A DNA stretch of 64,000 bases from Flavobacteriales bacterium (GCA_947463095.1 CANHRE010000001.1:10719-74718), one strand, 5' to 3'; positions 1,446 through 51,022 are shown, counted from the stretch's first letter. Notes: generated from the letters alone by a model not told the origin. Numbers and translations are program-made.

Positions 1446-3458
1446 ATGGATTCCCGGCAGGCAAAGGACAGGATTGATCAACTTACCGCAGCGCTGAAAG
1501 ACCATAACTATCGGTATTATGTGCTGGCTGAGCCGGTGATATCCGACTTTGAATTTGACCGCCTGCTCAAGGAACTTGAATACCTAGAAGGGCAATATCC
1601 TCAATACGCACGCCCCGACTCTCCTACCAGGCATGTAGGCTCTGATGTGAGCAACGAGTTTCGCAGCATCAGGCACAAAAGACCTATGCTGAGCCTTGGT
1701 AATACATACAGCGCAGCCGAATTGAAGGATTTTGACGGGCGAATTGCCAAAGCCCTGGTAAACGAAACCTATGAATATGTTTGTGAGTTAAAGGTTGATG
1801 GCCTGGCTATTTCCATTTTTTACGAACAAGGCAGGCTGGTTCAGGCCGTAACAAGAGGCGATGGAGTGCAGGGTGACGATGTTACGGAAAATGTGCGCAC
1901 CATACGCAGCCTGCCCAAGCAACTGCATGGCAATTATCCCAGCTCCTTTGAAATCCGAGGTGAGATTTTCATGCATCGAAAGGCCTTCGAAAAACTGAAC
2001 GAAGAACGACAGGCTGCCGGTGAATTGCCTTATGCCAATCCGCGCAATGTGGCTTCTGGCTCCTTAAAACTGAAGGACAGTCGCGAAGTTGCTGCCAGAC
2101 CGCTGGACATCATTCTTTACCATTATCTGGAAGAACAACAGCGTTTTGCAACACATTGGGAAGCCCTGGAAGCAGCCCGCTCCTGGGGTTTAAATATTTC
2201 GCCGCACAGTAGAAAATGTAGCGGTTTGGAAGAAGTGTTTTCCTTTTTGAAACACTGGGACGAAGCGCGTAAATCACTAAGCTTTGATACCGACGGCGTG
2301 GTCATCAAAATGAACAGCCTGAACCAGCAGCAGGAACTGGGATATACTGCTAAAGTACCGCGCTGGGCCATCGCGTATAAGTTCCAAACTGAAACAGCAC
2401 ATACCCGGCTCATAAACATCAGCTTTCAAGTGGGAAGAACCGGCGCCATCACGCCTGTGGCCAACCTCGAACCTGTATCGCTGCTGGGTACCATTGTTAA
2501 AAGGGCTTCGTTGTACAATGCGAACGAAATTGAACGCCTTGACATTCGTCCGGGCGACTGGGTATACGTGGAGAAAGGCGGAGAAATTATTCCCAAGGTT
2601 ACCGGCGTTGATTTCAGCAAGCGCGGCAATGATGTTCCCGCCTTTCGCTATATTTCCCATTGCCCCGAATGCCATACCGAGCTCGTTCGTGAAGAAGATG
2701 GCGCCCTGCATTACTGCCCGAACGAGACAGGATGCCCACCGCAAGTAAAGGGCCGAATTGAACATTTTGTGGCCCGCAAAGCGATGAATATTGACAGCAT
2801 CGGCTCGGAAACCATCGACCTGCTTTACAAGGCGGGCCTGGTGCAGAATGTGGCTGATCTTTACGATTTGCGTTTAGCCCAACTGCTTACTCTGGAACGC
2901 ATGGCCGATAAAAGTGCCCAAAACATGCTCAATGGCATCGACGCAAGCCGGCAGGTTCCCTTTGAACGGGTGTTGTTCGCCCTGGGCATCCGCCATGTAG
3001 GTGAAACCGTAGCCAGGAACATTGCTGCTTCCGCCGGGAACATCGCCTGGCTGGAGCAAGCCAGCACCGAACAACTGCAACAGATTGAGGAAGTAGGGCA
3101 AATTATCGCAACCAGCATCAGCCACTGGTTTTCAAAACCTGCCCACAAACAGTTAATTCACCGATTGCAACAGGCCGGCCTGAAACTGGAAACAGAACAC
3201 AAGGCTGCCGATTCTGATTTATTGAAGGGGAATACCCTAGTTATCACCGGTACATTCCTGCAATACAGCCGTGATGAAATTCGCGAAATGATAGAACGAA
3301 ACGGAGGAAAAAATGCTTCAAGTGTGAGTAAAAACACCAATTACCTTGTGGCAGGAGAAGGCGTTGGACCCGCGAAAATGGAAAAAGCGCTGGCCCTGGG
3401 TGTAGCGATTTTAAATGAGGATGAATTTTTAACGATGATCGGCCATGGCAACAAGTAA
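1446..3458 (+). CDS. ligA: NAD-dependent DNA ligase
   Basis: 670 aa. It has the adenylation motif ELKVDGLAIS (KxDG), a Zn-finger with four Cys (CPECHTEL...CPNETGCPPQ), HhH repeats and a C-terminal BRCT domain (LLKGNTLVITGTF...). Confidence 0.92.
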   Translation: MDSRQAKDRIDQLTAALKDHNYRYYVLAEPVISDFEFDRLLKELEYLEGQYPQYARPDSPTRHVGSDVSNEFRSIRHKRPMLSLGNTYSAAELKDFDGRIAKALVNETYEYVCELKVDGLAISIFYEQGRLVQAVTRGDGVQGDDVTENVRTIRSLPKQLHGNYPSSFEIRGEIFMHRKAFEKLNEERQAAGELPYANPRNVASGSLKLKDSREVAARPLDIILYHYLEEQQRFATHWEALEAARSWGLNISPHSRKCSGLEEVFSFLKHWDEARKSLSFDTDGVVIKMNSLNQQQELGYTAKVPRWAIAYKFQTETAHTRLINISFQVGRTGAITPVANLEPVSLLGTIVKRASLYNANEIERLDIRPGDWVYVEKGGEIIPKVTGVDFSKRGNDVPAFRYISHCPECHTELVREEDGALHYCPNETGCPPQVKGRIEHFVARKAMNIDSIGSETIDLLYKAGLVQNVADLYDLRLAQLLTLERMADKSAQNMLNGIDASRQVPFERVLFALGIRHVGETVARNIAASAGNIAWLEQASTEQLQQIEEVGQIIATSISHWFSKPAHKQLIHRLQQAGLKLETEHKAADSDLLKGNTLVITGTFLQYSRDEIREMIERNGGKNASSVSKNTNYLVAGEGVGPAKMEKALALGVAILNEDEFLTMIGHGNK

Positions 3459-3987: not shown

Positions 3988-4895
3988 CTCATTCTGCACA
4001 ATTCAGGGGCGCAGGAACTGCCCTGATTACCCCGTTTAACCAAGATGGCAGCCTGGATTTGAACGCACTGGAATTGCTGGTGGAACAGCAAATCAGCAAC
4101 AACATACACTATCTGGTAATACTGGGAACCACGGGCGAAAGCCCAACCATACGCCCCGATGAGCGGCAGCTGATAAAAGAAACGGTTTGCCGAGTAAACA
4201 ATGGACGCGTTCCACTGGTGCTGGGTATTGGCGGTAGCGACACTTATGCCGTTCGCGACGCCATGTTGCATGCTGACCTTGAAGGGATTGATGCCATCCT
4301 GAGTGTTTCTCCTTACTACAACAAGCCAAATCAACGCGGTATGGTGGAACATTACAGGGTATTGGCCGACAGCGCACCTCGGCCGATCATCATTTACAAC
4401 GTACCCGGCCGCACCGGAGCCAATATGCTTGCCCAAACCCAACTGGAAATTGCAGCATTTGATAATGTAATTGCCACGAAGGAAGCCAGCGGAAATGTGG
4501 AACAGTGCATGGAAATCCTGCGTCATAGGCCGGATGGTTTTCTGGTCATCAGCGGTGATGATGCGCTTACCTTCCCCTTCCTGGCCCTGGGTATGGACGG
4601 AGTGATCAGCGTGGCTACCCATGCCTTTCCTTTGGCCATGAGCAGTATGGTTACGGCGGCGCTATCCGGTGATTATCAGGCTGCCCGAGCCATACACTAT
4701 ACCCTACTCCCCATGATGCATGAAATTTTCAGCGACGGCTCGCCGGGAGGCATTAAGGTGATGCTGGAAGAAGCCAAAATATGCAAGAACGTGGTGCGGC
4801 TGCCGCTGATGCCCGTAAAACCGGACGTGGCAGAACGTTTACGCACGCTGTACCGCCAACTATCTGAGGATGAGCGCCTACCTGGCCAATCTTAA
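3984..4895 (+). CDS. dapA: 4-hydroxy-tetrahydrodipicolinate synthase
   Basis: 303 aa. The N-terminus GTALITPF...LVILGTTGES and the overall length match DapA/DHDPS. Confidence 0.9.
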   Translation: MTHSAQFRGAGTALITPFNQDGSLDLNALELLVEQQISNNIHYLVILGTTGESPTIRPDERQLIKETVCRVNNGRVPLVLGIGGSDTYAVRDAMLHADLEGIDAILSVSPYYNKPNQRGMVEHYRVLADSAPRPIIIYNVPGRTGANMLAQTQLEIAAFDNVIATKEASGNVEQCMEILRHRPDGFLVISGDDALTFPFLALGMDGVISVATHAFPLAMSSMVTAALSGDYQAARAIHYTLLPMMHEIFSDGSPGGIKVMLEEAKICKNVVRLPLMPVKPDVAERLRTLYRQLSEDERLPGQS

Positions 4896-42313: not shown

Positions 42314-42768
42314 TACAGCCCTTTTCTCCTCCGGATTTCAGCCCCCAAAACCCCGATTTCCGGGAAGAACTCGAACACATTTTAAAGGGGCAATACTTCA
42401 TGAAGCATATCGGATTCCAGTTGGAACATGTAGAAAACGGCAAGGCTGAGGGCTATATCGTACTAGGTGAGCAACATTTGCAACAACATGGTTATCTGCA
42501 CGGTGGCGTTAGCGCCACCGTATGCGACTTGGTTATGGGCTTTGCCGCCTGGTCCTTGATACCCAAAGGCTACGGTGTGGTTACCGCAAACCTGAACATC
42601 GACTACCACTATCCCGGGTTAGGCCGCAAGTTATTTGGCCGCGGCAGGGTGGTTAAAACGGGCAATATGCTGCACTTCTGCGAAGCGGAATTATGGCTTG
42701 ATGAAGGTCCGGTGGTAGTGCGCGCCAGCTCCATCATGAGCACCGTTGTCAAACCCCTAAACCCCTAA
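42310..42768 (+). CDS. PaaI-family hotdog-fold thioesterase
   Basis: 152 aa. The motif LHGGVSATVCDLVMGFAAW is typical of PaaI/4HBT thioesterases. Confidence 0.7.
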   Translation: MIQPFSPPDFSPQNPDFREELEHILKGQYFMKHIGFQLEHVENGKAEGYIVLGEQHLQQHGYLHGGVSATVCDLVMGFAAWSLIPKGYGVVTANLNIDYHYPGLGRKLFGRGRVVKTGNMLHFCEAELWLDEGPVVVRASSIMSTVVKPLNP

Positions 42769-44132
42769 GCACCGTTTTGATACTTCTTTAAAAGCAGCAT
42801 CACCTCGCGGCTGCCTGATGCCTTGGCCCATTGCCGAAGCTTTTTATGTTCTTCTCTGTTCAGTCCATTCCAGGCGCCTCGTTCCAACAAGCATTTGCAC
42901 AAGTCTAAATCTGCTTTGCGCACCGCCTCGAACAATGGTGTTTCCCCATTTTTATCGCGTATGTTCACCACAGCGCCAGAGGCCAGCAACTGCTTCACAA
43001 TGGCTGCAGCGCCCAGGATAACAGCATGGTGCAGGGCCGTTAATCCTTCCGCATCCTGGCTGTTTAGGTTTACGCTGCTGCAGCGAAGCAAGTGGTTCAG
43101 CGCTGGCCGGTTCCGCTTCAGCACCAACAGGTGAATTAATGGCAAACCCTGTCCATCGCGCTGATTCAGGTTAAAGCATGTGGTGCTGCATGCCATGGTG
43201 ATAATCGTATCCAGCAGCAGCTGATTGTTGGATTTCGCGGCCAGAAACAATAACTCAGAATCGGTGCCACACAGCAAATCCAAATAGGGTACATACGCGG
43301 CCATGTAGGACCATTGACCGGTGGTAAGGGCATTTTTAAGGTTTGCCTCCGTAAGTATACGCCGCGCCTCAACGGGCAATACCGAAAGCCGTTGAACAGC
43401 ATTCCCGAACAGCCTTAGATCAATATCTGAAGTGTCAACAAATCCGATATGTGGACCGGGAATTAATATTCCACCAACAACACCCTGTTCATCCAGCACC
43501 GCACTTCCAACTGCCGCCTGCGGAAACTGTTCGGCCAGGAACAGTGATTTGGTTCCTTCATCAGCCAAAACCGATAAATCCTGTCGGGTTCCGTCATCCA
43601 TGCAGCAACTCAGAAGAAGATGGAAAGGCGAAGCGCCGAAATTCAGTTTAAACGCCGGCATCCCTGACGGCCTGTCTATTTGAAGCAGCGCATAATTCTC
43701 GTCCATTCCACGAACACCTGTCCAAGCTTCAGCCCTTACGGAAGCAATCCGGAATACCGAAGAATCCGGAATTGGGGACCCCAGCGCGGCTGCCGGAATC
43801 CATACAAGCGCCTGGCCGCTTGTCAGCGCGCTCCGGTGCAGGCTGCTGCCTGCAGTAAGCAGCAAATCAGGAGCAACAAGAAAGGCTGTTCCCAAGGGTT
43901 TGTAGGGATGCTGTTTGGCTGAGGAATATCCTTCATTCCAACGCCATACTCCGAATGCAGGCGGCTTAAATGCCTCAGCAGGATATAGATATCCTGTGGT
44001 ACCGGTGCAGCCAGCAACAGACCTCTTTGGGGAAGGCCAGCCTGAACCGATAGGCGTTGCTTGTTGCGCCAGGCCTGAAGATAAAATCAGACATGCACAA
44101 AGCAGGCAGGAATACCGAAGATACCATTGCAT
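42765..44132 (-). CDS. secreted trypsin-like peptidase-fold domain fused to C-terminal ankyrin repeats
   Basis: The start was chosen at MQWYLRYSCLLCACLILSSGLAQQ, giving a signal peptide. The N-terminal half has chymotrypsin-fold-like GTAFLVAPDLLLTAGSSLH and a VGSAV motif. The C-terminal half has clear ANK repeats (DAEGLTALHHAVILGAAAIVKQLLASGAVVNIRDKNGETPLFEAV...). Confidence 0.55.
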   Translation of the reverse strand: MQWYLRYSCLLCACLILSSGLAQQATPIGSGWPSPKRSVAGCTGTTGYLYPAEAFKPPAFGVWRWNEGYSSAKQHPYKPLGTAFLVAPDLLLTAGSSLHRSALTSGQALVWIPAAALGSPIPDSSVFRIASVRAEAWTGVRGMDENYALLQIDRPSGMPAFKLNFGASPFHLLLSCCMDDGTRQDLSVLADEGTKSLFLAEQFPQAAVGSAVLDEQGVVGGILIPGPHIGFVDTSDIDLRLFGNAVQRLSVLPVEARRILTEANLKNALTTGQWSYMAAYVPYLDLLCGTDSELLFLAAKSNNQLLLDTIITMACSTTCFNLNQRDGQGLPLIHLLVLKRNRPALNHLLRCSSVNLNSQDAEGLTALHHAVILGAAAIVKQLLASGAVVNIRDKNGETPLFEAVRKADLDLCKCLLERGAWNGLNREEHKKLRQWAKASGSREVMLLLKKYQNGA

Positions 44133-44161
44133 ATCGCCACCGGGCACTTGCCCTGAATTTC

Positions 44162-45925
44162 TCAATCCAATAGCACCTGGAGCAAAGGTTGTACCGCTTT
44201 ATCGGCGTTTGCTTCCAGTGTCCATGCCGCCCTACTGACCTTTTCTGGGCGAAGCATGATGGTGCGCATGAGCCCAGCGCGGTTCACAAGCACTTCGGTT
44301 GGCTGATCATTTGTAAGCAGTCGGTTTACCTCTTCTATTGAATTTCCAACGCGGCGCCCGTCAATTGCAACCAGCTCATCCTGCACATTCAGTCCACCTT
44401 TCCAGGCTGGTAAATCGCGTTCAACATATTTCACCATAAGTCTGCCGTTTTCAAAAGCCGTACTGATGCCCAAGGTAGTTTCCGTTTTACCCGGATTCTG
44501 CGCTTTGATTCCCGCTTTGGCGAGTATTCCAGCATAATCGGGTATTTCGGTGCTTTCAACCAGGCCTCGGATTTCAGCGCCAAGCCCAACACCCCCTATG
44601 GCATCAATGGTTTCGTAAAATTCATCATTGCTGAAACCGCGCTCCGGCCTATTGAGGTATTGCTGCCAGAGTGACTTCATCACATCGTCGAGGTTGCGAC
44701 TCCCCTTAGTTCTGGATACAATGTTAGCGTCCAGAAGAAATGCCAGCACCTGCCCTTTCCCATAGTAACTGATGGTCGTATTGCGGCTATTTTCGTTCGG
44801 GCGGTATTCACGGATCCAGGCATCATGGCTGCTTTCTGCCAGCGACTGATAAAACCTTCCGGGACGCTGTTCCAAATCGTTGATGGCAGAGGCCATTTTC
44901 TCCAGATAGGCTTCTCGGGTATAGAATCCGGCTCGACGCAGGATGAGTTCATCGTAATAGCTGGTAATTCCTTCGGCCACCCACAGCATATCGGTATGAT
45001 TTTCCTTGCTGTAGTCGAAGGGCCCCAGAGGTTCAGGCCGGATGCGCTTCACATTCCATAGGTGCAGGTATTCGTGTCCGCATAACCCTAAAAACTGTTT
45101 GTATCGGGAGGGATTATTCCATTGCCAGCGAGGCATCATTACCGTGCAGGAATTGGCGTGTTCCAGACCACCTCCCCCGGCTTCTGTGTTTAACACAATA
45201 AACAGGTAATTCTTACAGGGATGATGCCCGAAAATGCCCGTGGTGGTATCGCAGATGACAGTAAGGTCGCGCACGAAAGTACCCATGTCCTGATTGCCGG
45301 ACCCCACTACGGCCACCGTATGGGGAACACCCTGCACCTTAAAATCAACGGTTTCATAATTTCCGGCGATGAGCGGAGCATCTGCTAAATCATCGTAATG
45401 TTCAAATGAGAATATGCCGGGCTTGAGTTCCGGTAATGCCACATTCATCTGCTTCCAGGCTGCGGGCAAGTGTACTTCGAGTATTCCCGGCAGATGTTTC
45501 ATTTGTTCTACCAGCATAAACACGGAAGTTTGGTGCAGAAATGCCATATCCGCATCAATAAAAGATGTGCGCACCGACCATTCAAATGCATACACCTTAT
45601 AGCGCACAGAGAGTGATTTCAGTCCTTTCACAGGAAACTGCCAGGTGTTCTTGTCCGTTCTTTGCGGTGTTAGCGGCTTCCCATCGGCTTCAGCCTGCAC
45701 CTGCTCCACACTTTTGGCGAACTCACGCAACAGGTAGCTGCCCGGAGTCCATGATGGCATGCGCAGGTCCAGCACCTGCTCCTTGAAACCGCTAAGCTCC
45801 ATACTTACTTCGGCATAATGCGTATGGGGTTCAGGGAAGGAAACACGATATTTTATTTGAGGCGTGGCAAAGTGCTCCATGATGGTCATGCTTGTAATGA
45901 ACAGCGTCAGTAAGGTGCGGCGCAT
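44162..45925 (-). CDS. M61-family glycyl aminopeptidase with C-terminal PDZ domain
   Basis: 587 aa with a signal peptide. The zinc motif is HEYLHLWN. The C-terminal PDZ-like block is LVAIDGRRVGNSIEEVNRLL. It overlaps the downstream gene by 4 nt. Confidence 0.75.
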   Translation of the reverse strand: MRRTLLTLFITSMTIMEHFATPQIKYRVSFPEPHTHYAEVSMELSGFKEQVLDLRMPSWTPGSYLLREFAKSVEQVQAEADGKPLTPQRTDKNTWQFPVKGLKSLSVRYKVYAFEWSVRTSFIDADMAFLHQTSVFMLVEQMKHLPGILEVHLPAAWKQMNVALPELKPGIFSFEHYDDLADAPLIAGNYETVDFKVQGVPHTVAVVGSGNQDMGTFVRDLTVICDTTTGIFGHHPCKNYLFIVLNTEAGGGGLEHANSCTVMMPRWQWNNPSRYKQFLGLCGHEYLHLWNVKRIRPEPLGPFDYSKENHTDMLWVAEGITSYYDELILRRAGFYTREAYLEKMASAINDLEQRPGRFYQSLAESSHDAWIREYRPNENSRNTTISYYGKGQVLAFLLDANIVSRTKGSRNLDDVMKSLWQQYLNRPERGFSNDEFYETIDAIGGVGLGAEIRGLVESTEIPDYAGILAKAGIKAQNPGKTETTLGISTAFENGRLMVKYVERDLPAWKGGLNVQDELVAIDGRRVGNSIEEVNRLLTNDQPTEVLVNRAGLMRTIMLRPEKVSRAAWTLEANADKAVQPLLQVLLD

Positions 45926-46349: not shown

Positions 46350-46670
46350 TCAGTCGCCGTACTCCAGCTCCAGCTTTGCGCTTTGCAGTTCGGACCGGGC
46401 GTGTTGATCGCCTAGCCTGGCAGCTGCGGCAATCCCCTGTTCATAAACTGCCATAGCCTGATCCTTTACCCCATCCTTCTCCATCAATTTCCCCAGATGG
46501 TAATAGGTAGCCACATAATCGGGATGTTGTTCCAGCAACCATTCCAGCAGGCGCCTGGCTTCAGTGGTATTGCCTGCGGAAAGATGTTCCTGCGCCAGTG
46601 CATAGTTCAGGAATGGATCCTCGGGTGATTCCTTAAGGAAGCCCAGCAGTTGGATCATGCGCGGATTCAT
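46350..46670 (-). CDS. tetratricopeptide-repeat protein
   Basis: 106 aa. The TPR-like A/Y/L periodicity is visible in LNYALAQEHLSAGNTTEARRLLEWLLEQHPDYVATYYHLGKL. Confidence 0.5.
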   Translation of the reverse strand: MNPRMIQLLGFLKESPEDPFLNYALAQEHLSAGNTTEARRLLEWLLEQHPDYVATYYHLGKLMEKDGVKDQAMAVYEQGIAAAARLGDQHARSELQSAKLELEYGD

Positions 46671-47136
46671 AAGGCAAAACTAAGGGCTTTCCCCGCATGC
46701 CGAAGCGCCTCACCCGAAACAGCATCCATGTGAGCAACAGAATTAATACCATTGCAGTAATGAACAGTTTCTTATATCGTTCCAGTGTGGATTCCTGTTG
46801 ATGTGCCTGTGTTTGTAGTGCGGCTATAGTGCTTTGATGTTGTCGGTCTTTTTCCACGCCTTCCGTATGATGCCTCAGACACAAGGAATCCACCGCGCGC
46901 TTCAGGCTGTCAACCCGGCGATAGGGTGTGGAATCCAACACAAACCAACAGGTGGGCATGGTAATTCCGCTGAACACCGAAGGCGGCAAGGGACAAGGCG
47001 ATGGAAAGTACGGTGGCGAACTGTTTAATACCTGAAACTTCCCCAGCGTGTCTGGTACAACTTCCGCCACCTGTATTTGGCCATTCATGCCTGCGGCGAA
47101 CAGCATCAACATCAGCATCAGCAACAAGTGCTTCAT
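46633..47136 (-). CDS. hypothetical bitopic membrane protein
   Basis: 167 aa. It has an N-terminal signal, a Cys/Pro-rich region and a C-terminal TM helix followed by an RVRRFGMRGK tail. It overlaps its neighbours at both ends. Confidence 0.4.
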   Translation of the reverse strand: MKHLLLMLMLMLFAAGMNGQIQVAEVVPDTLGKFQVLNSSPPYFPSPCPLPPSVFSGITMPTCWFVLDSTPYRRVDSLKRAVDSLCLRHHTEGVEKDRQHQSTIAALQTQAHQQESTLERYKKLFITAMVLILLLTWMLFRVRRFGMRGKPLVLPYESAHDPTAGLP

Positions 47137-48215
47137 TTTCCTGTTTTGTAGTAATTGATGTGAAGTTTGCTGCTTCCTGATTTCAACATGGTACCACTTT
47201 GCTGAATCCTTTGCTCCTGTTGTTTTTCTTCGTGCAACAGTTCATCCAGAAACGCCAGTACTGTGGAAGCAGTGACGCTCACTACGGCGCCGGAAGTAAT
47301 GGCCTCCACGGCAGCAGATTTCAGCAGGTTTGCCGATTGCTGACGGAACAGCTTATTATTGGCAAATAAGTCGCAGGAGATAATACTGTCGCCGGTAACA
47401 GCCACAAAGCCTATATAGCTTGTATCTTCAGCCATCAACTGGTTAAAATGTTGCAAGTAGGCCGGCAGGTCTTTATTTATTTTATCTGATTGGGCAATGG
47501 CGGTATAAGTACCGGTTCCGCTGCCAGTGCCGGCTTCGCGGTTTTTCACGGCTACCTTGCTCCATACCTCTCCCTGATTCTTTTCCACTACGGCGGCCTT
47601 GCGCACTGAAGGAGAAGTCACCCCGAAGGTATTGTTAAAGGTGTATCCGCTGCCGTTGGGTGTCCACCGTCCGCGCTCCACACAAAACACCGGAACCTGA
47701 ACAGGCCCCGAGTTGGGCAGCAGCAACATATCCTTGGCAACCACCCGATCCTGTTTCCCTCCAGTAACGACCTCTCCTGCCAGTACAAGCACGGTATCCT
47801 TGCCTTTGTTCTCGAATACCAGCGTGTTCACCGTTCCACCCTGAAGTTCGCTCACCACCACGGCACCTTTAGTGAGGGCATCTTTAAAACTGGTATAGTT
47901 CCCAAGTCCCCTGTGCGCCTTTACAAATTCAGGTTCCGATGATATCATGTACAATCTGAGGTTCCCAAACGTAAACTTCTGTTCTTCTGCGCTCAACTCC
48001 TGTTTGATTTTAGTACCCTGATCGCCAAAAGCCCAGGCATAGTTTGCATTCGTGGATCCGTTTGCCTGATTGCTGATGCGGTATACAGTATCGGCAGAGG
48101 AAATCTTGTTCTTGAAAAGCTTCAGATCTTCCTTGTTATACTGAGCCTTTGCGCTGCCAGCGGCCATAATGGCACCCAGAAGAAGGAATCTTGACATGTT
48201 GGTGGAATGGTTCAT
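47133..48215 (-). CDS. hypothetical secreted protein
   Basis: 360 aa with a signal peptide (MSRFLLLGAIMAAGSAKAQ). I recognise no catalytic motifs. It is the first gene of a three-gene operon divergent from the LytS/LytTR pair. Confidence 0.45.
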   Translation of the reverse strand: MNHSTNMSRFLLLGAIMAAGSAKAQYNKEDLKLFKNKISSADTVYRISNQANGSTNANYAWAFGDQGTKIKQELSAEEQKFTFGNLRLYMISSEPEFVKAHRGLGNYTSFKDALTKGAVVVSELQGGTVNTLVFENKGKDTVLVLAGEVVTGGKQDRVVAKDMLLLPNSGPVQVPVFCVERGRWTPNGSGYTFNNTFGVTSPSVRKAAVVEKNQGEVWSKVAVKNREAGTGSGTGTYTAIAQSDKINKDLPAYLQHFNQLMAEDTSYIGFVAVTGDSIISCDLFANNKLFRQQSANLLKSAAVEAITSGAVVSVTASTVLAFLDELLHEEKQQEQRIQQSGTMLKSGSSKLHINYYKTGK

Positions 48216-48392
48216 TTTTTCAGAAATATTTGCTCAAAACTGACGGTTCTTTTCCTGGCCTTTTGAACCAATGAGCCAAACAGGCTTTTGAATGAGTCAA
48301 TGTGCCGGATTGGCTGACCAAATACCGAAAGGAAGGTTAGTTTGGTAGGCTATTTTATCATTTAGGTTCAATACACTGATTAGATTTGTGCA

Positions 48393-50264
48393 TTGCTGCG
48401 CTGTAAAATCCTGCTGATGCTTGCCCTTGTGGGTTGTTGCCTGCGTTTAGCGGGCCAGAATAATCCTGTTCCGCGCGGTGCCGGCGAATTGTTACATGAT
48501 GCTGGAACTTATGAAAACACCCAGCCGGGAAAGAGCATGGAGCTGGCCGCAGAAGCGCTTGAACTGGCCTTAAAGGGTAAAGATCAACAGCATATTGCCG
48601 GATGTTACCTGCTGCTTGGCCGATTGCACCTTACCAATGGCAATAAGGAGCGCGCTGCTGAATTACTGGAAAAGGCATCGGAGGGCTATGGGACGCTTCA
48701 AAATGCTGCAGCCAAGGCCGAGGCCGACCGGCTGCTGGCGCTGGCTCTGGAACGTTCCGGCAAATTGGACAAAGCGGCAGAGGTTCAGAAAAACTACATG
48801 AACTCTTCAGCCATCAGCAAAAAGGATAAAATCAGGGCCAGTGGCAAGAATGCGGAATACATGTACCGCAAGGGGCTGAAAAGCGAAGCAATAAAAGAAT
48901 TGGAGCAGAATCTTCCAGAGGTGCAGCGCGACACGGTGGTGAAGCTGGAACTGATGAACCAGCTGCAGGGAATTTATGGACAAACGGGCGACACGTTGGG
49001 AACCATCAGGATGGCTCAGGAAAATATCGAATTCCTGGCCGTCAATAAATCTGCAGATGCCGCCAGCTTTACCTGGAAATTCGGTGAGGCGCTGCTGAGC
49101 AACGGGAGTGTGAGCACCAGCCTGAACATCAACGAGAAACTGCTCACCGGAGCCCTTAATAATGAAAACTATCTGGTAGCCCGTCAGGCTTACCTGAACC
49201 TGGGATTCACCTATGCGCGCAGCAATGATTATCCGCAGGCCATGCGCATGTTCACGGCAGGATACCAAACCGCGGTGCAGCATCAGGATGCTCTTGGTGA
49301 ACAGGAAGCGCTGCTGCGCATAGCAGAAACAGAGGAACATACCGGGAATTACCCGGCTGCACTCAACGCCTACCAGCGCTATACCATGCTGAAAGATTCC
49401 TTCCGGCATTTGGATGTTCTCGCCGAAGTGCGCAAACTGGGGTTGAACGAGCAATTTGCCCGGCAAGAACAGCGCATAAAAACACTGGAAACCGATCAGA
49501 TTAAACGCGACTGGGAACTGCAAAAACAAAAGCAGGCCATCATCATCCTTGGCGCAGCTGTGCTGCTGTTCCTGTTGCTGCTGTTCCTGTTGTTCAGAGC
49601 CCTGAAAGCCAAACAGCAAGCCAACCTTAGCAATCGACTACAATCGCTGCGCAACCAGATGAACCCGCACTTCATCTTCAACTCGTTAAACTCCGTAAAC
49701 CATTACATCAGCCTGCATCAGGAAAGAGAGGCAAACCGTTACCTGAGTAGCTTCAGCACCCTGATGCGTAGTGTGCTCAGCAATTCGGGAAAGGATTTTA
49801 TCAGCCTGCGTGAAGAATTGGAAATGCTGCGCATTTACACGGACCTGGAACAAGCGCGATTCGCCGACAAATTCGACATACGCTGGGATATGGACGAAGC
49901 CCTTCCCCTGGATGAACTACAGGTGCCTCCGCTGCTGCTGCAGCCCTATGTGGAAAATGCAGTATGGCATGGCCTCAGATATCGGGAAAACCGAGGACTG
50001 TTAAGCATTAAGGTATTCATCCAGGACAATCAACTTTGTTGTTTGATCATAGACGATGGCATCGGCAGGAAACGAAGCAGGGAACTGAAAACCGAAAACC
50101 AAAAGCGCAGCACCGGTACCGGATTGAAGAACACGGAAGAACGTATTGTCATTCTGAACAAGTTGTATAAAACAGGAGTTCGGGTGATGATTGATGATTT
50201 AAACGAGGAAGGTGGCACCTTGGTGCGCATCCTTATTCCATTGAAAAAGGTGGAACCCATATGA
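48393..50264 (+). CDS. sensor histidine kinase (LytS/YehU His_kinase family) with an N-terminal extracytoplasmic TPR domain
   Basis: The order is signal peptide, TPR repeats, one TM helix (AIIILGAAVLLFLLLLFLLF), a His_kinase motif LRNQMNPHFIFNSLNSVNHYI, then HATPase_c. Confidence 0.75.
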   Translation: MLRCKILLMLALVGCCLRLAGQNNPVPRGAGELLHDAGTYENTQPGKSMELAAEALELALKGKDQQHIAGCYLLLGRLHLTNGNKERAAELLEKASEGYGTLQNAAAKAEADRLLALALERSGKLDKAAEVQKNYMNSSAISKKDKIRASGKNAEYMYRKGLKSEAIKELEQNLPEVQRDTVVKLELMNQLQGIYGQTGDTLGTIRMAQENIEFLAVNKSADAASFTWKFGEALLSNGSVSTSLNINEKLLTGALNNENYLVARQAYLNLGFTYARSNDYPQAMRMFTAGYQTAVQHQDALGEQEALLRIAETEEHTGNYPAALNAYQRYTMLKDSFRHLDVLAEVRKLGLNEQFARQEQRIKTLETDQIKRDWELQKQKQAIIILGAAVLLFLLLLFLLFRALKAKQQANLSNRLQSLRNQMNPHFIFNSLNSVNHYISLHQEREANRYLSSFSTLMRSVLSNSGKDFISLREELEMLRIYTDLEQARFADKFDIRWDMDEALPLDELQVPPLLLQPYVENAVWHGLRYRENRGLLSIKVFIQDNQLCCLIIDDGIGRKRSRELKTENQKRSTGTGLKNTEERIVILNKLYKTGVRVMIDDLNEEGGTLVRILIPLKKVEPI

Positions 50265-51022
50265 AACCCTCCATACGCGCTCTGATTGCCGACGATGAAC
50301 AGTCTTGCCGGGAAACCCTAAGGCATTATATATCGCGCTATTGCAACCAAATTGAACTGGTTGGAGAAGCGTATGATGTTCGGGATTGTGTAATGAAAAT
50401 CCGCGCCTTAAAACCCGAATTGGTATTTCTGGATGTAGAAATGCCTTTCGGAAATGCCTTTGATGTGCTGGAGCAAACTGCCGGAGTATTGTATAAAACC
50501 ATATTTGTTACTGCCTTCAGCGAATATGCTATGCGCGCCCTGAATGCAAGCGCGTCGTATTATCTGCTCAAGCCATTAAACATTGACGAATTGATTCGCG
50601 CTGTGGAGAAAGTACAGAATCAAGAAGAACAACCCCAGGAGGTTCAGTCCGGCATCATCAGAGAAAACCTGAGCAGCGGGAAAATCCGGAAAATCCTGAT
50701 TCCCACACTAAGCGGTTTTGAAGTGTTGAAGGTGGATGAAATTATCCGCATCAGCGGGAACGGAAACTATACCGATCTGCATTTAAGCGGTCAGCGGCGC
50801 AAAACGGTGAGCCGTGTGCTGAAATATTTCGACGAACTGCTTCAGGCCGATGGCTTTCTCCGGGTGCATAAAAGCCATTTGGTGAATATGGATTATGCCG
50901 TTGCCTGGCATAGAGGCAAAGGTGGTTTTTTAGAACTCAGCGATGGCAGCGAGGTAGAAGTATCGCCGCAAAAGAAGCAGGATGTACTCACACGTTTAGG
51001 TGCAGGACCCGGTGTTAGCTGA
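50261..51022 (+). CDS. LytTR-family two-component response regulator
   Basis: The receiver domain is ALIADDEQ...VFLDVEMP and the C-terminal LytTR DNA-binding domain is LRVHKSHLVNMDY. It overlaps the kinase gene by 4 nt. Confidence 0.85.
   Translation: MKPSIRALIADDEQSCRETLRHYISRYCNQIELVGEAYDVRDCVMKIRALKPELVFLDVEMPFGNAFDVLEQTAGVLYKTIFVTAFSEYAMRALNASASYYLLKPLNIDELIRAVEKVQNQEEQPQEVQSGIIRENLSSGKIRKILIPTLSGFEVLKVDEIIRISGNGNYTDLHLSGQRRKTVSRVLKYFDELLQADGFLRVHKSHLVNMDYAVAWHRGKGGFLELSDGSEVEVSPQKKQDVLTRLGAGPGVS

Follow-up and report, generated by a model that had tools for sequence, protein, structure and literature searches.

We have found that the 177-bp spacer (48216-48392) separating a minus-strand ARPP-1/DUF6569 gene from a plus-strand histidine kinase/LytTR regulator operon carries an array of 10-nt direct repeats, TT(C/G)(A/G)CTCATT on the minus strand, with a 21-bp period. 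The three repeats (R1, R2 and R3; Table 1) lie in the window, by which we mean the whole 64-kb stretch of DNA that was analysed, and are almost certainly a selected cis-element. We think that the LytTR regulator encoded next to the array probably binds R1-R3 and activates the ARPP-1 operon, and we put the probability of this at about 0.75. Judged from its sequence, the array is most likely a further case of the known class of LytTR direct-repeat operators, and a fairly ordinary regulatory element. Its peculiarities are modest: there are three sites rather than two, one array is placed at fixed distances from two divergent promoters, and those promoters are of the Bacteroidota type.

Table 1. 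The three-repeat array, the predicted promoter boxes, the repeat cores first described and the flanking genes (positions count from the first letter of the window; centres are predicted, relative to the predicted transcription starts)
Feature	Position	Strand	Sequence or domains	Predicted centre, ARPP-1 promoter	Predicted centre, kinase promoter	Remark
106-aa TPR protein	46350-46670	minus				ARPP-1 operon
167-aa membrane-anchored protein	46633-47136	minus				ARPP-1 operon
ARPP-1/DUF6569, secreted	47133-48215	minus	PF20208, E = 1e-57			First gene of the target operon
ARPP-1 operon -7-like box, predicted	48235-48242	minus	CAGTTTTG			(C/G)AnnTTTG variant of TAnnTTTG
CTTTTGAA core, copy one	48260-48267					Within the 27-nt stretch from R1 to the ARPP-1 box; not conserved
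R1, promoter-proximal	48270-48279		minus: TTGGCTCATT; plus: AATGAGCCAA	-44.5	about -118.5	3' half of copy one
CTTTTGAA core, copy two	48285-48292					Mostly inside the non-conserved 11-nt R1-R2 spacer
R2, middle	48291-48300		minus: TTGACTCATT; plus: AATGAGTCAA	-65.5	about -97.5	3' half of copy two
R3, distal	48312-48321		minus: TTGGTCAGCC; plus: GGCTGACCAA	-86.5	-76.5	TTnAC half alone conserved
Kinase/regulator operon -7 box, predicted	48381-48388	plus	TAGATTTG			Perfect TAnnTTTG
Sensor histidine kinase	48393-50264	plus	N-terminal TPR, one membrane span, His_kinase (PF06580), ATPase domain			PF06580 81.4 bits; orthologues called at 614 aa
Response regulator, receiver + LytTR	50261-51022	plus	Response_reg 55.5 bits; LytTR 46.1 bits			LytTR cut-off 22.6; Response_reg also above its curated Pfam cut-off

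The evidence for the array comes from the comparison of related loci. When anchored on R1 alone, the spacers of all 14 distinct loci in our set, whose ARPP-1 proteins are 47-85% identical to that of the window (47-59% for the distant additions), align without any gap. R1 is conserved in every one of these loci, R2 lies exactly 21 nt from R1 in each, and the shared layout, read along the ARPP-1 coding strand, is R3 (TTnAC.....)-11-R2 (TTnACTCATT)-11-R1 (TTnrCTCATT)-27-(C/G)AnnTTTG-19 to 23-ATG. Mean information amounts to 1.16 bit/position in R1, 1.05 in R2 and 0.71 in R3, where it is concentrated in TTnAC; it is 0.35-0.41 bit/position in the spacers (0.30-0.41 for spacers and upstream flank together). 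At a distance of 21 nt from R1 the 11 divergent loci agree with TTNACTCATT at 84/99 positions (85%), and at 42 nt from R1 they do so at 54/99 (55%), whereas seven control offsets, one-nucleotide shifts either way included, give matches of 21-34%. R3 itself shows as an information peak exactly 21 nt from R2, the 55% match at this offset standing against 29-33% at offsets of 20 or 22. We regard the contrast between the 21-nt offset and the one-nucleotide shifts as decisive; the binomial p for this offset, ~1e-29, overstates independence, the loci being related.

Individual sites vary in quality. R3 of the window is a weak match, with TTGGT in place of TTnAC, and R2 is degenerate in L002, L004, L089, L093 and L094. 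Candidates for a third copy at a 22-nt offset were also considered and have been superseded by the 21-nt register. Close relatives share two more conserved blocks, of which TTCAAAnCTGA lies by the ARPP-1 start and TTAGATTTGTGC by the kinase start. We also note a block between R1 and the ARPP-1 box (48249-48256, minus strand GAAAAGAA) that is invariant in six close relatives and absent in distant loci; it could be a clade-specific promoter element, or could simply not yet have diverged. On specificity, a AATGAGNNAA-N11-AATGAGNNAA pair occurs once in the 64-kb window even with three mismatches allowed, and a scan of 690 kb of related loci with position weight matrices (both sites at least 6 bits, period 21) returned the orthologous sites, a second array in one locus (L096, discussed below) and two weak extras.

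The first-pass annotation had placed a longer, imperfect direct repeat in this same spacer, and the location, sequences and coordinates that it gave for the two copies are exact (copy one, 48257-48279, ggccttttgaaccaatgagccaa; copy two, 48283-48300, ggcttttgaatgagtcaa). An ungapped repeat search, nevertheless, splits this repeat into two pieces with different offsets, namely CTTTTGAA at 48260 and 48285 (spacing 25, 8/8 identical) and AATGAGCCAA at 48270 with AATGAGTCAA at 48291 (spacing 21, 9/10 identical). Judged by the window alone, the repeat does not exceed what chance would give: a ten-mer repeated with 9/10 identity at any period of 11-39 turns up in 15% of dinucleotide-shuffled versions of the 177-bp spacer (1.5% for periods of 20-22), and the best gapped direct-repeat score is equalled in 40% of spacer shuffles. 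The significance of the repeat therefore derives from the comparison between loci and not from window statistics. The full gapped repeat of 23 and 18 nt was rejected as a unit, since it does not rise above the shuffles and its CTTTTGAA half is not conserved; a gapped pattern search with CTTTTGAA-N(0-6)-ATGAGYCAA finds copy one only, because the two halves of copy two overlap by one A.

Conservation in orthologous spacers, which the annotation had proposed as a check, separates the two halves of the repeat. The AATGAG(C/T)(C/G)AA half is retained, always with the 21-bp period; in close relatives copy one shows little or no variation in AATGAG(C/T)(C/G)A, and the motif can be recognised in copy two (alignments A1 and A2). 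The CTTTTGAA half is not retained. The cores that had been aligned at a 25-bp spacing lack conservation even where the proteins are 80-85% identical, the orthologues reading CTATACAC, CTTGGCCG, CTGAACCG and AAAAGCCG at the position of the copy-one core (alignments A1 and A2), and the leading GGC of the motif is not conserved either. The proposal of a paired direct repeat at two-helical-turn spacing that serves the adjacent LytTR regulator thus appears sound in its conservation, its geometry of 10 + 11 nt and its linkage to both operons, and wrong in its register. It had also missed the third, half-conserved repeat and the fixed distances to both -7 boxes.

The genes on either side of the array suggest what it might control. 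ARPP-1 has an N-terminal signal-like sequence and contains the invariant blocks FCVE.GRW and GGKQDR (alignment A3). In the excerpted text of PMC9503650, ARPP-1/DUF6569 is predicted, from a conserved Cys and Gln, to be an enzyme acting on sugar moieties, and no link between ARPP-1 and a kinase/LytTR pair appears among the gene neighbourhoods quoted there. A literature search on DUF6569 returned eukaryotic ARPP-16/19 matches only, which we judged to be noise. The frames of the ARPP-1 operon overlap or abut, and the same gene order is found in L002, L006 and L007. On the other side, the kinase and regulator genes, which overlap by 4 nt (50261-50264, the kinase stop and regulator start sharing ATGA), constitute a PF06580-type two-component system with a LytTR output. 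The NCBIfam models nearest to the regulator, BtsR (99.6 bits, cut-off 246) and LytR, both score below their cut-offs, and more than 4800 relatives of the regulator are found at E below 1e-30. The 3' end of the regulator gene overlaps that of a convergent alanine dehydrogenase/PNT-family gene by 8 nt (51015-51022). We note separately that a 466-aa ORF on the minus strand (42765-44165), downstream of an M61 glycyl aminopeptidase gene, has an orthologue with ankyrin repeats in L002; ankyrin repeats are uncommon in bacteria.

The array lies at fixed distances from predicted promoter boxes on both sides. The sigma-A -7 box of Bacteroidota, TAnnTTTG, spans positions -12 to -5 (PMC9723704), so that transcription is predicted to start near 48230 on the minus strand and near 48393 on the plus strand. 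The ARPP-1 box is found in 14/14 loci, with exactly 27 nt between it and R1 in each, and with 19-23 nt between it and the start codon. Its first dinucleotide is CA or GA, never TA, in all 14, and no -33 TTG is present at the expected 19-nt distance from it; because of the CA/GA box and the missing -33 TTG, the ARPP-1 promoter looks activator-dependent. The kinase box lies within a block that is invariant in close relatives save for one base of L007 (TTAAATTTGTGC as against TTAGATTTGTGC). The distance from R3 to a TAnnTTTG box upstream of the kinase is 58-60 nt in 12/12 loci with an adjacent kinase, the sequence in between being unalignable between distant loci. The two boxes are ~138 nt apart, and reading the window sequence reveals no second array that faces the kinase promoter with 27 nt between it and the box of that promoter. 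With regard to the start codons, translation of ARPP-1 probably begins at the first ATG (48215), which is separated from the -7-like box by 19 nt, as in orthologues; public gene calls take the second ATG as the start (48197, 354 aa, P0001). For the kinase, ATG at 48417 is a likelier start than TTG at 48393, which coincides with the predicted transcription start.

Natural rearrangements indicate which genes the array belongs to. In L091 and L092 a Por_Secre_tail gene and a YoeB toxin-antitoxin pair put the kinase 3.6 kb from ARPP-1. The ARPP-1 side of both loci keeps R1-R3, with a perfect R1/R2 pair (AATGAGTGAA-11-AATGAGTGAA in the plus-strand orientation of the window) 27 nt from the box, and the kinase side of L091 has a set of its own, ATTTAGCAAA-11-AATGAGCGAA-11-GGCGTGTAAA, followed after 58 nt by TATCTTTG; the spacers of the ARPP-1-side and kinase-side sets are unrelated. 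In L096 the insertion is about 3 kb long and includes ParDE, CoiA and other genes, the ARPP-1 side again keeping R1-R3 at 27 nt. The pair scan located the second array of this locus at about 1034 (AATGAGTAAA-11-GGCATGTAAA, then TATCTTTG, laid out as in L091), beside a truncated gene that proves to be the N-terminus of the orthologous kinase (E = 2e-17, collinear). The splits in L091 and L096 were probably one evolutionary event, since the ARPP-1 proteins are 77% identical, and both sets of repeats have been retained in both loci since the split. The inserted cargo differs between the two (624-3472 in L091, 1106-3794 in L096), and the spacer behaves like an insertion hotspot. The degenerate sites in the split loci are R1' in the kinase-side set and R3 in the ARPP-1-side set, which hints that each promoter mainly uses its two nearest sites.

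In three further loci (L097-L099), which come from widely sampled Bacteroidia and whose regulator is 50% identical to that of the window, the divergent operon consists of an unrelated 324-aa gene, a VWA_4 gene and then ARPP-1 in third place, and the layout is kept as box-27-R1-11-R2-11-R3-58-TATATTCG. Bacteroides sp. 224 (L100, GCA_010500995.1) has a variant array (TTCACCnnTT) of TTCACCCGTT, TTCACCAATT and TTAAAACATT with periods of 21 and 22 nt; this array starts 28 nt from a perfect TACTTTTG box and lies between the kinase and a VWA gene, ARPP-1 being absent. An IS200-type Y1 transposase gene (4355-4813) is found between the kinase and LytTR regulator genes of the same locus. From the arrangements of L091/L092, L096 and L097-L099 together with L100, we conclude that the array is tied to two operons, the kinase/regulator one and the ARPP-1/VWA output one. 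Moreover, the split ARPP-1 side, at a distance of 3.6 kb from the kinase, has a perfect R1/R2 pair, so that ARPP-1 itself is presumably a target.

Other relatives contribute less. The close relatives of ARPP-1 come from uncultured Bacteroidota only, and loci with 80-85% identical ARPP-1 retain the whole gene order. Most array-bearing loci also hold the kinase/regulator pair, L096 showing only the N-terminus of the kinase. A metagenome scan with the ARPP-1 alignment returned mostly distant homologues, of 28-44% identity, among which L009-L011 alone were useful; almost none of those distant homologues has the kinase/regulator pair and none has the array. Distant ARPP-1 loci without the pair likewise lack the array, an association that is confounded with phylogenetic distance. 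In L014 (ARPP-1 42% and regulator 38% identical to those of the window) the pair stands beside ARPP-1, and the locus is uninformative because just one AATGAGTGAC is present, with no array standing at the canonical distance. L101 has the pair without ARPP-1, and its array is not intact: two TTTACACA-type sites 52 nt apart are found upstream of the kinase (2900-3175), one of which may be at the position of R1. L101 shares its SecG/LptE/sigma-54 neighbourhood, minus ARPP-1, with L093. As regards the composition of the regulated operon, the window clade has ARPP-1 with the 167-aa transmembrane protein and the TPR protein, and L094 and L095 have ARPP-1 with VWA_4 (in L094 also Dioxygenase_C); the pairing of secreted ARPP-1 and VWA proteins may be the functional core of this operon.

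The dimensions of the array are those of a LytTR operator. A LytTR site, according to PMC4847170, consists of a pair of 9-11-nt repeats, 11-13 nt apart, for which there is no shared consensus. Here there are three 10-nt repeats with 11-nt spacers and a nearby, co-inherited LytTR regulator, and the array would lie upstream of the core promoters, R1 being 27 nt and R3 58-60 nt from boxes predicted by the TAnnTTTG consensus. None of the AgrA, YpdB, AlgR, BtsR and LRS consensus strings fits the repeat sequence. In particular, the AgrA/ComE-type box, [TA][AC][CA]GTTN[AG][TG], has no match on either strand of 48216-48392. YpdB, the regulator of the LytS/LytTR-type YpdA/YpdB system, binds its sites at the E. 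coli yhjX promoter sequentially and cooperatively (PMC4847170). Its operator resembles the array in being a direct repeat of a 10-nt motif (GGCATTTCAT) that goes with a LytTR regulator, and YpdB activates a neighbouring target; unlike the array, it has two sites rather than three, its sequence is unrelated (4/10), its target gene is not arranged divergently to the regulator operon, and the YpdA-type kinase is a LytS-type multi-span sensor rather than a single-span TPR kinase. The spacer between the YpdB sites is reportedly 11 nt.

In Staphylococcus aureus, AgrA binds direct repeats between the divergent agr promoters P2 and P3, which are suboptimal and activator-dependent (PMC4227749). The array resembles this system in that its repeats lie between divergent promoters, one for the regulator's own operon, pointing to probable autoregulation, and one for the output. 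In the agr system, however, each promoter has a separate pair of repeats, whereas here a single three-site array would serve both. The AgrA consensus is absent here, the promoters are of the Bacteroidota type (-7 TAnnTTTG) rather than the -35/-10 type, and the proximal site is predicted to be centred at about -44.5 as opposed to about -60 for AgrA. In B. thetaiotaomicron and B. ovatus, the 'LRS-like' LytTR operons of Bacteroides have predicted 11-nt repeats with an 11-nt spacer (PMC6193735, Table 3), shortly upstream of a -33/-7 (TATCTTTG) promoter, and autoregulation has been proposed for them (PMC6193735). They share with the array the phylum, the promoter type and the scale of repeat and spacer, but there the LytTR regulators are anchored in the membrane and have neither a receiver domain nor a kinase, and the repeats, which are also predicted, number two only and read TCCGGTATTCA, as against three repeats of another sequence here. 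The family consensus TTCACTCATT agrees with the streptococcal LRS repeat ACCACTTAT at 6/9 positions. At the E. coli btsT/yjiY promoter, BtsR (YehT) is said to recognise the repeat ACC[G/A]CT[C/T]A with a 13-nt spacer. The BtsR-type repeat, ACCACTCA, agrees with TTCACTCATT at 6/8 positions, with CACTCA as the common core, but the window's own sites (TTGGCTCATT) agree with it at 4/8 only, and the spacer is 11 nt here rather than 13.

That the repeat fits no published LytTR consensus, and that other regulator families also use direct repeats at two-turn spacing (PMC5859096), would suit a conserved operator for some other transcription factor encoded elsewhere, the LytTR regulator then having different targets. 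We consider this unlikely. The array accompanies the kinase/regulator operon even where ARPP-1 has been split off, and also where the first divergent gene is a different one; its dimensions of 10 nt + 11 nt suit the LytTR description, and the conserved neighbourhood encodes no other DNA-binding protein. It is also quite improbable that the regulator binds the array but acts as a repressor, or that it controls its own operon alone and the ARPP-1 promoter merely happens to be adjacent. R1 is upstream of the would-be -33 position and does not cover the core promoter; the non-consensus ARPP-1 box without a -33 element is typical of activator-dependent promoters; and the split ARPP-1 side retains its perfect R1 and R2 at 3.6 kb from the kinase. 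Such a reading does gain something from the distance between R3 and the kinase box, which is under no less constraint than the R1-to-box distance on the ARPP-1 side, and from the set of repeats that the kinase side keeps in the split loci.

Chance similarity, or a functionless compositional quirk of an AT-rich spacer, would account for a window repeat that falls within the shuffles (15% ungapped, 40% gapped), but it is refuted by the comparison across loci, where the register is gapless amid unalignable flanks, the match at the 21-nt offset is 85% as against 21-34% at the controls and the 27 nt to the box are invariant in 14 loci; it holds for the CTTTTGAA half only. Nor do we see more than a negligible prospect that the blocks are promoter elements of an alternative sigma factor, although flavobacteria do have ECF-type promoters, or part of a non-coding RNA, given that three equal copies with a 21-nt period centred at -44 to -87 are too many and too far upstream, that 10-nt blocks with free spacers are unlike a folded RNA or a coding frame, and that an Rfam search of the spacer gave no match at E up to 1.

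We therefore return to the adjacent LytTR regulator as the probable binder of R1-R3, for which the following scheme may be proposed. The TPR histidine kinase would sense a signal, probably a periplasmic one, and would phosphorylate the regulator (predicted acceptor D58). The phosphorylated regulator would then occupy R1-R3 cooperatively on one face of the DNA, the three sites lying on the same helix face because their spacing is exactly 21 bp. From -44.5 and -65.5 (R1 and R2) the bound regulator would recruit RNA polymerase to the weak ARPP-1 promoter, and secreted ARPP-1 would be switched on together with its two small partners. With R3 near -76.5, the array would probably also mediate positive autoregulation of the kinase/regulator operon. 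In this scheme the repeats, the way they are conserved, the constant distances and the linkage to the genes are observed, whereas we infer the transcription starts, the binding by the adjacent regulator and activation as opposed to repression. A broader reading, to which we would give even odds, is that a rigid three-site LytTR operator common to two back-to-back Bacteroidota promoters constitutes a phylum-wide module, in which an uncharacterised periplasmic-TPR kinase controls secreted ARPP-1/DUF6569 and VWA proteins as well as its own synthesis, with R1 and R2 used for the output and R2 and R3 for autoregulation.

Lastly, the array is useful as annotation and overturns nothing known. Pairs of a TPR-type histidine kinase and a LytTR regulator are very numerous in Bacteroidota, and a literature search found no TPR kinase/LytTR system of this phylum for which a DNA site or a target had been defined. 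If the broader reading is true, the array would give a LytTR two-component system of Bacteroidota its first defined regulon motif, and the function of secreted ARPP-1 could for the first time be approached through its regulation. The consensus, TT(C/G)ACTCATT-N11 three times over at 27 nt from the -7 box, translates into a pattern with which complete genomes could be searched for the regulon, TTNRCTCATT-N11-TTNACTCATT followed by N27-NANNTTTG; it also delimits a fragment suited to binding and reporter assays, and the locus of Bacteroides sp. 224 may be a culturable entry point. An operator this precise and this conserved would provide a testable link between a signal, the kinase, the regulator and the secreted ARPP-1/VWA proteins.
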